Shown here: positions 6,233 through 59,045 of the stretch, in pieces
Layout of the letters: each line of letters begins with the position of its first letter
Position numbering within the stretch: position 1 is the stretch's first letter
Assembly: GCF_003790525.1 (NCBI RefSeq)
Contig: NZ_CP033635.1
DNA from: Escherichia coli
GTDB taxonomy: Bacteria > Pseudomonadota > Gammaproteobacteria > Enterobacterales > Enterobacteriaceae
Strand: one strand, 5' to 3'
Length of the DNA: 64,000 nucleotides
Notes under the pieces: model-generated
Database searches by the model: none
Told to the model about the DNA's origin: nothing
What the model saw: only the letters and a program-made list of their open reading frames with translations
Program-made: the position numbers and the translations under genes

Positions 6233-7664
6233 GCCATTTCAGCGCCCGTTTTCGCTGGCAACCCGTCTGACCTTTTTTATCAGCCTGGCCACCATCGCGG
6301 CGTTTTTCGCCTTTGCATGGATCATGATCCACTCGGTAAAAGTGCATTTTGCCGAGCAGGATATTAATGATTTAAAAGAGATTAGCGCCACCCTTGAACG
6401 GGTACTTAATCACCCTGACGAAACGCAAGCCCGACGCTTAATGACGCTGGAAGATATCGTCAGTGGTTATTCCAACGTGTTGATTTCTCTGGTAGATAGC
6501 CACGGTAAAACGGTGTATCACTCCCCCGGTGCGCCGGATATCCGCGAGTTTGCACGTGATGCCATACCCGATAAAGACGCTCGGGGCGGCGAGGTGTATC
6601 TCCTTTCCGGCCCGACAATGATGATGCCAGGCCACGGTCACGGACATATGGAACACAGCAACTGGCGGATGATTAACTTGCCGGTTGGCCCGCTGGTGGA
6701 CGGCAAACCGATTTATACGCTCTACATCGCGCTGTCTATCGATTTTCATCTTCATTACATTAATGATTTGATGAATAAACTTATTATGACCGCATCGGTA
6801 ATCAGCATTCTGATCGTCTTTATCGTGCTGTTGGCGGTACATAAAGGTCACGCGCCGATCCGCAGCGTCAGCCGTCAAATCCAGAACATTACCTCGAAAG
6901 ATCTCGACGTTCGCCTCGATCCACAGACCGTGCCCATTGAACTCGAACAACTGGTGCTGTCGTTCAACCATATGATCGAGCGTATTGAGGATGTCTTTAC
7001 CCGCCAGTCCAATTTCTCAGCGGATATCGCCCACGAAATTCGTACACCAATTACGAATCTCATAACGCAAACGGAAATCGCCCTCAGCCAGTCGCGCAGC
7101 CAGAAGGAGCTGGAAGATGTGCTCTACTCTAATCTCGAAGAGCTGACGCGAATGGCGAAAATGGTCAGCGATATGTTGTTTCTCGCCCAGGCCGATAACA
7201 ACCAGTTAATCCCCGAAAAGAAAATGCTCAACCTGGCGGATGAAGTCGGCAAAGTGTTCGATTTTTTCGAGGCGTTAGCGGAAGATCGCGGCGTGGAGTT
7301 GCGGTTTGTTGGTGACGAGTGTCAGGTTGCGGGCGATCCGCTGATGTTGCGTCGGGCGTTAAGCAACCTACTTTCTAATGCCCTGCGTTATACGCCAACC
7401 GGAGAGACAATTGTCGTGCGCTGCCAGACGGTCGATCACCTGGTGCAAGTTACCGTCGAAAACCCTGGTACGCCCATTGCGCCTGAGCACTTACCGCGAT
7501 TGTTTGACCGTTTCTACCGCATTGATCCTTCCCGCCAGCGAAAAGGCGAAGGTAGCGGTATTGGCCTGGCGATAGTGAAATCGATTGTTGTCGCGCATAA
7601 AGGCACGGTTGCGGTAACGTCAGATGCGCGGGGAACAAGGTTTGTTATCATATTACCCGCTTAA
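6222..7664 (+). CDS. cusS: CusS, copper-sensing histidine kinase
   Basis: ORF contains [19 protein letters not shown] with two TM segments and an HK core (HEIRTPIT); start chosen at the ATG at 6222, overlapping the cusR 3' end by 11 bp. Confidence 0.88.
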
Positions 7665-26594: not shown

Positions 26595-27104
26595 ATGTCT
26601 TCCCGCAATAATCCGGCGCGTGTCGCCATCGTGATGGGGTCCAAAAGCGACTGGGCTACCATGCAGTTCGCCGCCGAAATCTTCGAAATCCTGAATGTCC
26701 CGCACCACGTTGAAGTGGTTTCTGCTCACCGCACCCCCGACAAACTGTTCAGCTTCGCCGAAAGCGCCGAAGAAAACGGTTATCAGGTGATTATTGCGGG
26801 CGCAGGCGGCGCGGCGCACCTGCCAGGTATGATTGCCGCCAAAACGCTGGTGCCGGTGCTGGGCGTGCCAGTACAGAGCGCCGCACTGAGCGGTGTCGAT
26901 AGTCTCTACTCCATCGTACAAATGCCGCGCGGCATTCCGGTGGGTACGCTGGCGATTGGTAAAGCTGGCGCGGCAAACGCGGCGTTACTGGCAGCACAAA
27001 TTCTTGCGACTCATGATAAAGAACTGCACCAGCGTCTGAATGACTGGCGCAAAGCCCAGACTGACGAAGTGCTGGAAAACCCGGACCCGCGAGGTGCGGC
27101 ATGA
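26595..27104 (+). CDS. purE: PurE, N5-carboxyaminoimidazole ribonucleotide mutase
   Basis: 169-aa product from [20 protein letters not shown]. Confidence 0.93.
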
Positions 27105-28168
27105 AACAGGTTTGCGTCCTCGGTAACGGGCAGTTAGGCCGTATGCTGCGTCAGGCAGGCGAACCGTTAGGCATTGCTGTCTGGCCAGTCGGGCTGGACG
27201 CTGAACCGGCGGCGGTGCCTTTTCAACAAAGTGTGATTACCGCTGAGATCGAACGCTGGCCGGAAACCGCATTAACCCGCGAGCTGGCGCGCCATCCGGC
27301 CTTTGTGAACCGCGATGTGTTCCCGATTATTGCTGACCGTCTGACTCAGAAGCAGCTTTTCGATAAGCTCCACCTGCCGACCGCACCGTGGCAGTTACTT
27401 GCCGATCGCAGCGAGTGGCCTGCGGTGTTTGATCGTTTAGGTGAGCTGGCGATTGTTAAGCGTCGCACTGGTGGCTATGACGGACGCGGTCAATGGCGTT
27501 TACGCGCCGATGAAACCGAACAGTTACCGACTGAATGCTACGGCGAATGTATTGTCGAGCAGGGCATAAACTTCTCTGGTGAAGTGTCGCTGGTTGGCGC
27601 GCGCGGCTTTGATGGTAGTACCGTGTTTTATCCGCTGACGCATAACCTGCATCAGGACGGTATTTTGCGCACCAGCGTCGCTTTCCCGCAGGCCAACGCG
27701 CAGCAGCAGGCGCAGGCCGAAGAGATGCTGTCGGCGATTATGCAGGAGCTGGGCTATGTGGGCGTGATGGCGATGGAGTGTTTTGTCACCCCACAAGGTC
27801 TGCTGATCAACGAACTGGCTCCGCGTGTGCATAACAGTGGGCACTGGACGCAAAACGGTGCCAGCATCAGCCAGTTTGAGCTGCATCTGCGGGCGATTAC
27901 CGATCTGCCGTTACCACAACCGGTGGTGAATAGTCCGTCGGTGATGATCAACCTGATTGGTAGCGATGTGAATTATGACTGGCTGAAACTGCCGCTGGTG
28001 CATCTGCACTGGTACGACAAAGAAGTCCGTCCGGGGCGTAAAGTGGGGCATTTAAATTTGACCGACAGCGACACATCGCGTCTGACCGCGACGCTGGAAG
28101 CCTTAATCCCGCTGCTGCCGCCAGAATATGCTAGCGGCGTGATTTGGGCGCAGAGCAAGTTCAGTTAA
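27101..28168 (+). CDS. purK: PurK, N5-carboxyaminoimidazole ribonucleotide synthase
   Basis: 355-aa ATP-grasp [19 protein letters not shown]; overlaps the purE stop by 4 bp. Confidence 0.93.
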
Positions 28169-28184
28169 TTGATGCTCATTTTCT

Positions 28185-28372
28185 TGCCGCATGCGGCGTG
28201 AACGCCTTATCCGGCCTACCGTTCCAACACCGACTGTAGGCCTGATAAGATGCGCCAGCATCGCATCAGGCATGGTGTGCCGATTGCCGGATGCGGCGTG
28301 AACGCCTTATCCGGCCTACCGTTCCGACACCGCCTGTAGACCTGATAAGACGCGCCAGCATCGCATCAGGCT
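28185..28372. repeat. REP/BIME cluster (two tandem roughly 100-bp units of paired REP palindromes)
   Basis: GCCGGATGCGGCGTGAACGCCTTATCCGGCCTAC and its inverted partner GTAGGCCTGATAAGACGCGCCAGCATCGCATCAGGC appear twice in tandem between convergent purK and ybcF. Confidence 0.85.
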
Positions 28373-28400
28373 AGATGTGCCAATTGCCTGGTGCCCATCA

Positions 28401-29294
28401 CTACAGCGAAATACAGGTCCCCGCTTCGCCCGCCAGCGTCTCTTCAATTCGCGATAACGCCCCAATCCACGCGGGTTTACCACGGCTTCTGACATAGCCA
28501 CTCACTGCCGTTACCTTCGGCCCCATCGAACCATCGGCTTTGGCAAGTGGCGCTAACTCATCCGGTGTGGCATGGCGAATGGCACGTTGCTGCGGCGTTC
28601 CCCAGTTTTCATATACCGCATCAGCATCGGTGAGGATCACCAGTCCATCGGCATTAATCTGCTCGGCGAGCAACGCAGCGGCGAGATCTTTATCAATCAC
28701 TGCTTCACTCCCTACTCCGTCATCCGTCACAGGCACACCGCCGCCGCCACTGCAAATCACCACATGCCCCTCTTTGAGCAACAACTCGATGGCTTCGCTG
28801 TCGAGAATATTACGCGGTTGCGGAGACGCCACCACCCGGCGCAAATATTTACCATCACGTTTCATCTGCCAGCCGTAAGCAGCTTCCAGTGCCTCTTGTT
28901 CTTCTGGCTGATAAACCGGACCGATAAACTTCTCTGGCTGCAAAAACGCCGGATCATCAGGCGAAACCTCAATGCGCGTCAGCACCGTCGTGACAGGCGG
29001 CATCTGCGGCTGTGCGCTCAAGCTCTGCACCAGCATATAGCCAATCATCCCCTGGCTTTCCGCCACCAGCACATCCAGCGGATACGGTTCTACCTCTTTC
29101 CACGCCAGATTCTGTAACGCCAACAGCCCCACCTGTGGCCCGTTGCCGTGAACAATCGCCAGCCGATAAGAACGGGCCAGGCGCGCCAGCGCGGGTACAG
29201 CACTGGCAATATTGCGATATTGATTTTCTGCCGTCAGCGCCTCACCGCGCTGGAGTAAGGCGTTGCCCCCAAGAGCCACAACCAGTGTTTTCAT
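28401..29294 (-). CDS. ybcF: Carbamate kinase-like protein (YbcF/ArcC family)
   Basis: 297-aa product from [18 protein letters not shown], a carbamate kinase fold signature; start overlaps the ylbF stop. Confidence 0.85.
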
Positions 29295-36472: not shown

Positions 36473-36513
36473 GTCATACCACTCGCCTGATTATTTTTAG
36501 CTATGTTGGATTT

Positions 36514-36541
36514 TGCCACGGTTTATTCCGTGGCTTTTTTT
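36514..36541 (+). terminator. Rho-independent terminator after allDCE
   Basis: GCCACGG-TTTATTC-CGTGGC stem-loop followed by TTTTTTT. Confidence 0.75.
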
Positions 36542-36556
36542 GCGGTAAATTCAGGT

Positions 36557-50309: not shown

Positions 50310-50396
50310 GCCGGATGCGGCGTGAACGCCTTATCCGGCCTACGGTTAAGTGCAGTTTTGTAGGCCTGATAAGACGCGCCAGCGTCGCATCAGGCA
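50310..50396. repeat. REP/BIME element (inverted REP pair)
   Basis: GCCGGATGCGGCGTGAACGCCTTATCCGGCCTAC plus inverted GTAGGCCTGATAAGACGCGCCAGCGTCGCATCAGGC between convergent selU and ybbP. Confidence 0.85.
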
Positions 50397-55824: not shown

Positions 55825-55990
55825 TTGAAATGCGATGTGCTGGTTTGTAGGCCTGATAAGACGCGCCAGCGTCGCATCAGGCATCCGCGCATAGCCGCCG
55901 GATGCGGCGTGAACGCCTTATCCGGCCTACCAAACCGTGCTAATTCAATACATTGCAGGTGCCATGTAGGTCTGATAAGACGCATCAGGC
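55825..55990. repeat. REP/BIME cluster
   Basis: Several copies of the GTAGGCCTGATAAGACGC...GCATCAGGC and GCCGGATGCGGCGTGAACGCCTTATCCGGCCTAC palindromes between convergent ybbN and fetB. Confidence 0.85.
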
Positions 55991-58503: not shown

Positions 58504-58958
58504 TGGAGTTAATGGTCGTTCATCCACATATTTTCTGGCTCAGTCTCGGCGGGTTGCTGCTGGCAGCCGAGATGCTGGGCGGAAATGGTTATTTGTTGTG
58601 GAGCGGCGTGGCAGCGGTGATTACCGGCCTGGTGGTCTGGCTGGTGCCGCTGGGTTGGGAGTGGCAAGGGGTGATGTTTGCCATCCTGACGCTGCTCGCC
58701 GCCTGGCTGTGGTGGAAATGGTTGTCGCGGCGGGTGCGCGAACAAAAGCACAGCGACAGTCATTTAAACCAGCGCGGGCAGCAGCTGATTGGCCGACGTT
58801 TTGTGCTGGAATCTCCGCTGGTCAACGGGCGCGGTCATATGCGCGTCGGCGACAGTTCATGGCCTGTCAGCGCCAGCGAGGATCTCGGTGCAGGTACGCA
58901 TGTTGAAGTCATTGCGATAGAAGGGATAACGCTGATCATCCGTGCGGTCATCGCCTGA
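58500..58958 (+). CDS. ybbJ: YbbJ, NfeD-like membrane protein partner of QmcA
   Basis: 152-aa [31 protein letters not shown]; overlaps the qmcA stop by 4 bp. Confidence 0.88.
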
Positions 58959-59045
58959 TGCGACGCTGACGCGTCTTATCATGCCTACAAAATATGCCCG
59001 AATCGTAGGCCAGATAAGGCGCTTGCGCCGCATCCGGCATATAGC
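58959..59045. repeat. REP-like palindromic element at the left edge of the ybbJ-cueR insert
   Basis: GATGCGACGCTGACGCGTCTTATCATGCCTAC ... GTAGGCCAGATAAGGCGCTTGCGCCGCATCCGGCAT, a REP inverted pair. Confidence 0.75.

Follow-up and report, generated by a model that had tools for sequence, protein, structure and literature searches.

In BIME-2 elements, a y REP and an oppositely oriented z2 REP flank a short linker, and this arrangement is repeated in multiple tandem copies (Ton-Hoang et al. 2012, PMC3333891). Their linkers are conserved within a locus and differ between loci, and the number of units at a given locus depends on the strain (PMC3333891). Gyrase cleavage is enriched in BIME-2, chiefly in the y REPs, and is independent of transcription (PMC6379681). 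In BIME-1, it is the long L linker that binds IHF (PMC3333891), and elements of the BIME-1, RIB and RIP kinds are described as IHF-binding (Boccard and Prentki 1993, as cited in PMC12306157).

The Y/Z2 array REP325 acts as a partly Rho-dependent terminator and stabilises the mRNA upstream of it (Harris et al. 2026, preprint 10.64898/2026.03.23.713779). It has also been described as the source of naRNA4, an HU-binding RNA reported to condense the nucleoid (Qian et al. 2015, PMC4550694). No measurable effect of naRNA4 on nucleoid compaction was found by Harris et al. (2026), and Adhya, the senior author of the 2015 paper, is a co-author of the 2026 preprint. For convergent gene pairs across the genome, the presence of REPs in between correlates with increased expression of both members (Harris et al. 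2026). The effects of REPs depend on context according to the same preprint, one section title of which states that terminal REPs are not generally linked to longer mRNA half-lives.

Here we analyse an array of REPs between purK and ybcF of Escherichia coli, to which an earlier note on this DNA had drawn attention. We read it as a BIME-2 array that changes by whole units in register and that would have roles at the RNA level and as a gyrase site; to this account as a whole we give a probability of roughly 90%.

The repeat between purK and ybcF

The window, that is, the whole stretch of 64,000 nt that was analysed, is 100% identical to E. coli SMS-3-5 (NC_010498.1) on the minus strand of that record, from which the annotation of the flanking genes was taken. 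Based on the open reading frame list and this RefSeq annotation, purK occupies 27101–28168 on the plus strand, ending with the TAA stop codon at 28166–28168, and ybcF, which encodes a carbamate kinase, occupies 28401–29294 on the minus strand, with its stop codon at 28401–28403. The two genes are convergent and enclose a spacer of 232 nt. The array lies wholly inside this spacer, so that it is extragenic, as is characteristic of BIME-2. No repeat features are annotated at the purK–ybcF locus in the K-12 RefSeq record, and none of the papers searched names ybcF together with purK.

Two other features were seen in the surroundings. The gap between lpxH and purE carries, in ST131-type strains, an annotated hypothetical open reading frame of 109 aa (330 nt; WP_001188440.1), which is located at L005:686–1015 (ST131 strain 2019_APHA) and at L013:2302–2631 among the extracted loci; in SMS-3-5 this gap is a spacer of only 116 nt. 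On the minus strand of the window, positions 36479–36545 match the enterobacterial small RNA STnc480 in Rfam, scoring 81.9 bits where the gathering score is 72.

A repeat finder detected two direct copies of 100 nt each, at 28184–28283 and 28284–28383, which are 91% identical at an offset of 100 nt. Tandem Repeats Finder delimited the repeat at 28184–28388, with a period of 100, 2.0 copies, 91% matches, no indels and a score of 347. Nine differences distinguish unit 1 from unit 2, at unit positions 7, 43, 50, 57, 68, 89, 90, 92 and 99, and the three quoted in the earlier note, with the contrast between CCAACACCGACTGTAGGCC and CCGACACCGCCTGTAGACC, are among them. Its description of two nearly identical tandem units of about 100 bp, each with a REP and an inverted REP, between convergent purK and ybcF, agrees with both repeat programs, with the Y and Z2 consensus matches given below and with the annotation of NC_010498.1. 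The span that it assigned to the repeat, 28185–28372, does cover the four REPs and falls short at the edges, since the true repeat extends about 1 nt further to the left and 11–16 nt further to the right.

Unit 1 (28184–28283) reads on the plus strand as a Y REP, a 16-nt linker, an inverted Z2 REP and a 14-nt linker. Unit 2 (28284–28383, plus strand) has the haplotype of a terminal unit, and its 3′ linker is TAGATGTGCCAA. The right edge of the array is formed by TTGCC (28384–28388, plus strand), five bases with which a third unit would open and which correspond to a truncated start of a Y REP.

The REPs were assigned by matching the Y consensus and a 36-nt Z2 pattern over the window, for which shuffled sequences gave an expectation of 0.00 matches. 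Independently of these consensus strings, an Rfam model made up of Y plus Z2 aligns end to end on the array.

The first Y REP (28186–28219, plus strand) has one mismatch to the consensus, a G-to-C change at 28190 that creates a C–C mismatch in the stem and lowers the predicted stability to −14.4 kcal/mol, compared with −21.3 for the consensus. The head-to-head linker CGTTCCAACACCGACT (16 nt, 28220–28235) lies between the CTAC of this REP and the GTAG of the first Z2 REP (28236–28271, consensus orientation on the minus strand), which has no mismatches and a hairpin near consensus stability (−19.1 and −20.0 kcal/mol for the two strands, the latter on the minus strand). The tail-to-tail linker ATGGTGTGCCGATT (14 nt, 28272–28285) joins unit 1 to unit 2. 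The second Y REP (28286–28319, plus strand) is free of mismatches and reaches −21.3 kcal/mol, and the second Z2 REP (28336–28371, minus strand) carries one mismatch, a stem change of GTAGGCC to GTAGACC, with predicted values of −17.5 kcal/mol on the minus strand and −12.4 on the plus strand.

The order of elements is therefore Y(+), 16 nt, Z2(−), 14 nt, Y(+), 16 nt, Z2(−). Both Y REPs end with CCTAC, and the inverted Z2 REPs begin with GTAGGCC and GTAGACC. The GTAG/CTAC tetranucleotide and the internal bulge of the predicted stem are kept in all four REPs. The inner pair of REPs is at or near consensus stability, and each outer REP has one destabilising substitution; the weakest hairpins are the two outer ones, which are those first met by each transcript (−14.4 on the purK strand and −17.5 on the ybcF strand). 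On either strand, the predicted fold of the whole array is more stable than those of shuffled controls (z = −4.6 and −3.1).

Four REPs at zero to one mismatch, in alternating orientation, with short linkers, in tandem units and with a unit number that varies between strains, identify the purK–ybcF array by its sequence as a BIME-2 with alternating Y and Z2 REPs. The IHF binding suggested in the earlier note does not hold for such an element, because the IHF site sits in the L linker of BIME-1 (PMC3333891), and "IHF/gyrase" should read "gyrase". The IHF consensus WATCAANNNNTTR is absent from the array; elsewhere in the window it occurs just twice, at 6473 and 17876. As the partner REP is Z2 and the linker is 16 nt long, the array is neither a BIME-1 nor an IHF-binding RIB or RIP element.

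Further REPs are present in the window. Positions 50310–50395 hold a single unit of Y, 16 nt and inverted Z2, whose linker (50344–50359, GGTTAAGTGCAGTTTT) has the same length as that of the purK array and a different sequence. A piece of BIME-2 consisting of an inverted Z2 REP, 14 nt and a Y REP lies at 55847–55930, and Rfam reports a naRNA4 match of 83.6 bits there (55850–55927, minus strand). A solitary Z2-like REP with one mismatch to the pattern is found at 58953–58988 on the plus strand.

Unit number among strains and its mode of change

Using as a query 300 nt of each flank, joined together, we searched 5,426 complete E. coli genomes. Of these, 5,425 gave a match, and in 5,413 the two flanks were found together at a single place. 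The same spacer length of 232 nt was found in all 60 of the closest independent complete genomes, which rules out an assembly artefact. Nor is the array one of the tandem repeats used for MLVA/VNTR typing, such as ms32 with its 101-bp repeat: none of the 14 primers from ms06 to ms32 matches the window at up to 3 mismatches.

An evenly spaced sample of 60 genomes gave nine classes of spacer length. The most frequent were spacers of 136–138 nt (22 of the 60), 194 nt (17) and 532–533 nt (9). Spacers of 204 nt and of 232 nt were each found in three genomes, that of 126 nt in two, and those of 132, 152 and 332 nt in one each; the locus was rearranged in the remaining genome. The allele sequences establish that a single unit is present in the O157-type strain ERL03-1416 (138 nt) and in DLL7555 (132 nt), about 1.6 units with a truncated second Y REP in K-12 (194 nt), two units in SMS-3-5 and 2022H048 (232 nt), three in E11 and KKo003 (332 nt) and five in an ST131 strain and Z1323HEC0016 (532–533 nt). 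Alleles with 1, about 1.6, 2, 3 and 5 units thus occur at purK–ybcF, in line with the variation between strains that had been anticipated in the earlier note. Two lineages of the array can be told apart by the 16-nt linker, which is CGTTCCRACACCGMCT in the type of SMS-3-5, E11 and ST131 and CGATCCGGTACCCATT in the type of K-12 and O157.

Because all 60 genomes closest by flank (at least 99.3% identity, ST648 included) have two units, the array is not hypervariable, and its unit number is fixed by lineage. Furthermore, the locus can do without the second unit and even without the array: a full-length allele without REPs is present in 238 of the 5,426 genomes, and single-unit alleles are found in many lineages. 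The core of the REP-free allele, of about 50 nt, also occurs at other loci in other genomes.

In the K-12-type allele (L004:669–862 from K-12 J53, and L009 from Ec387), only TTGCCGGATGCGGC is left of the second Y REP, and ACCGGTT and a Z2 REP follow it immediately, which corresponds to the loss of about 39 nt within the array. Three REPs of this allele are intact, and it gives no match of the naRNA4 class. The REP-free spacer of E. coli E118 (NZ_CP049196.1, L008:301–452) is 152 nt long and holds a C-rich palindromic repeat, CCCTCACCCTAACCCTCTCCCC...GGGGCGAGGGGAC, which resembles boxC. In E. coli SK0189 (NZ_AP046539.1, L013:4300–5850), an IS1397 is inserted in the loop of the first Y REP after purK (GCCGGATGCGGCGTGA|TGAACTGCACC). 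The other end of this IS1397 adjoins half of a Z2 REP beside gsk, and the ybcF flank was not found in the genome. This arrangement suggests a large deletion by recombination between copies of IS1397 inserted in REPs; its size is presumably about 50 kb, judging from map positions in K-12.

To follow the units themselves, seven arrays of the SMS-3-5 linker type were cut into units of 100 nt and compared. Unit 1 of SMS-3-5 is identical to the first unit, and unit 2 to the last unit, of the five-unit array of Z1323HEC0016, and the haplotype of unit 2 differs from the single unit of DLL7555 at one position. All arrays cut into units share the 3′ haplotype of the terminal unit, from which E11 and KKo003 deviate by one base, and all seven have the 17-nt tail TTGCCTGGTGCCCATCA. 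Internal units are mosaics of two haplotypes. Since the first and last units are kept, the terminal haplotype and the tail are constant and the internal units are mosaics, the array changes by whole units, in register.

Such changes would most simply arise by homologous recombination between units that have paired unequally, or when replication slips from one unit to another. Alternatively, the REP-associated transposase RayT might catalyse the gain and loss of units, along the route of amplification proposed by Ton-Hoang et al. (PMC3333891). SMS-3-5 has an intact rayT between yafL and flhA (NC_010498.1, 254577–255074), and variation in register is compatible with homologous recombination or slippage and with the action of RayT alike.

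A 45-nt probe across the linker of unit 1 matched at most four places per genome, and in all three cases that could be cross-checked the matches were confined to the purK–ybcF span. With the linker seen nowhere but at this locus in these three cases, and the linkers of the other BIME-2 elements in the window differing in sequence, the pattern agrees with this unit having been amplified in place and not dispersed.

Possible roles of the array and of the unit junction

The array likely serves both operons as a hairpin barrier in the 3′ untranslated region or as a partial terminator, and also as a gyrase site. Both convergent transcripts would run into it as part of their 3′ untranslated regions, where the GC-rich hairpins would block 3′-to-5′ exonucleases. 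It would also act as an imperfect, partly Rho-dependent stop that insulates the two operons from each other. At the DNA level, by analogy with other BIME-2 loci, the Y REPs would be preferred sites of gyrase cleavage. No intrinsic terminator, in the sense of a hairpin followed by a U-tract, was found on either strand in a scan of 27900–28700. The supplements of PMC7815308, PMC9023263 and PMC12306157 contain no experimental 3′ ends or REP tables for purK or ybcF. Expression means for K-12, given in the supplement of Harris et al. (2026), put purK at a baseMean of 1170 and ybcF at 73, a difference of about 16-fold.

Neutrality is a serious rival to these roles. The array would then be a selfish repeat, a by-product of REP and RayT proliferation and of slippage, without effect on the flanking genes, and drift would have set the copy number of each lineage. 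This reading carries weight because alleles at the locus range from a REP-free spacer, found in 238 of the 5,426 genomes, to five units, all of them tolerated. In addition, the outer hairpins have decayed, the copy number follows lineage, and Harris et al. (2026) describe no uniform effect of REPs on half-life. However, the inner pair of REPs has stayed at or near consensus, and observations at other loci, namely the genome-wide correlation of REPs between convergent genes with higher expression of both and the transcription-independent cleavage of BIME-2 by gyrase, speak for an effect. Neutrality is thus quite possible, if on balance doubtful, and we prefer a barrier or partial terminator combined with a gyrase site.

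An extension of that preferred role would make the unit number (0, 1, about 1.6, 2, 3 or 5, fixed by lineage) a heritable dial, acting on the stabilisation of purEK and ybcF transcripts and the read-through between them, or on the release of zero to four modules of the naRNA4 class. We regard this as an unlikely extension. If it were true, ST131, with five units, and K-12, with no complete module, would differ in the expression of purine and allantoin genes, and such differences would arise without any change of promoter or coding sequence.

The naRNA4-class module is a pair of hairpins, Y plus Z2, at 28239–28316 on the minus strand, where Rfam RF02564 (naRNA4) matches over its full 77-nt model with 83.1 bits (59.5 on the plus strand; the gathering score is 59.5). 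Because the match spans the Z2/Y junction between unit 1 and unit 2, the module exists only through the duplication. Across the alleles tested, the number of RF02564 matches above threshold equals the number of units minus one: there is none in two single-unit alleles, in K-12 or in the REP-free allele, one in the two-unit array of SMS-3-5, two in a three-unit array and four in a five-unit array. Apart from naRNA4, no Rfam family matched the array, except for a CRISPR repeat at chance level (20 bits, E = 0.53). The match is best read as a generic Y plus Z2 pair of BIME-2, to judge from its sequence, and not as a sign of a dedicated small RNA.

From the score (83.1 bits, with a gathering score of 59.5) and from the count of matches, units minus one, the array could be proposed as a source of an RNA of the naRNA4 type, its junction being released as a 77-nt RNA with two hairpins that binds HU and bridges cruciform DNA. 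The requirement for two hairpins, with structure mattering more than sequence (Qian et al. 2015, PMC4550694), is in keeping with this proposal. Nevertheless, we consider it very improbable. RF02564 is in effect a generic Y plus Z2 pair, so that a match shows a class of sequence and not a function, and the better-scoring strand is the sense strand of ybcF, whose expression is low in the K-12 data (baseMean of 73, against 1170 for purK). For REP325 itself, its deletion or the overexpression of naRNA leaves the volume of the nucleoid unchanged, no stable complex of HU, cruciform and naRNA4 is formed, and contacts between REPs do not depend on HU (Harris et al. 2026).

Translational down-regulation of purK by the first REP, which would stall ribosomes at the stop codon, has hardly any probability left, although the first Y REP is close to that codon and the mechanism has been described for nearly half of E. 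coli REPs (Liang 2015, as cited in PMC12306157): REPs acting in this way begin fewer than 16 nt after the stop codon (a limit of 15 nt; Liang et al. 2015, same source), whereas 17 nt (28169–28185) lie between the TAA and G28186, the first base to pair, just over the limit, and the hairpin concerned, weakened by its stem mismatch, is less stable than the other three. K-12 has 16 nt at this place and ST131 has 18 nt, all of these values being just beyond 15 nt, and the gap on the ybcF side is 29 nt. The value for purK is borderline, as it would shift with the base chosen as the start of the REP.

The array among described repeat systems

The kind of element found here and the variation of its copy number between strains are already known and ordinary. 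The array adds no new kind of element or mechanism, and its significance beyond housekeeping is small. It does illustrate that REP/BIME arrays can be recognised from the raw sequence by a first-stage reader. It also provides a clean BIME-2 allelic series across 5,425 complete E. coli genomes, a possible natural test bed that could address the debated effect of REP copy number on flanking convergent genes.

Several described systems share features with the array. The REPINs of Pseudomonas, with their RAYT (PMC3116915), likewise have inverted REP pairs as the repeated unit and a single-copy RAYT gene. However, those doublets are dispersed to many loci, whereas the unit at purK, as defined by its linker, was seen at one locus only and is gained and lost locally in tandem. 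BIME-1, RIB and RIP elements likewise lie at the 3′ ends of transcription units and hold a Y REP together with another REP in inverted orientation. In BIME-1 the Y REP is paired with Z1 across a long L linker with an IHF site, and the element is present in a single copy; in contrast, the purK array has the 36-nt Z2, a 16-nt linker and a tandem arrangement.

REP325, with its naRNA4, has the same two-hairpin module of Y plus Z2 with the same spacer length, as reflected in the match of 83.1 bits over the full 77-nt model. Its REPs number 12 and lie between yjdM and yjdN, two genes that point in the same direction, whereas the purK array comprises four REPs between convergent genes. For REP325/naRNA4, an RNA and its binding to HU have been reported and the nucleoid role is disputed; the purK array is known from its sequence.

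The closest counterpart is BIME-2 as described by Gilson, Bachellier and Hofnung (summarised in Ton-Hoang et al. 2012, PMC3333891). The purK array is like it in the alternation of Y and Z2, in both linkers, which are conserved within the locus and distinct from those of other loci, in the tandem units, whose number varies between strains, and in the extragenic location at the 3′ ends of genes. Nothing of substance sets the two apart: the purK–ybcF array is a small BIME-2 of two units, in which each outer REP carries one destabilising substitution.
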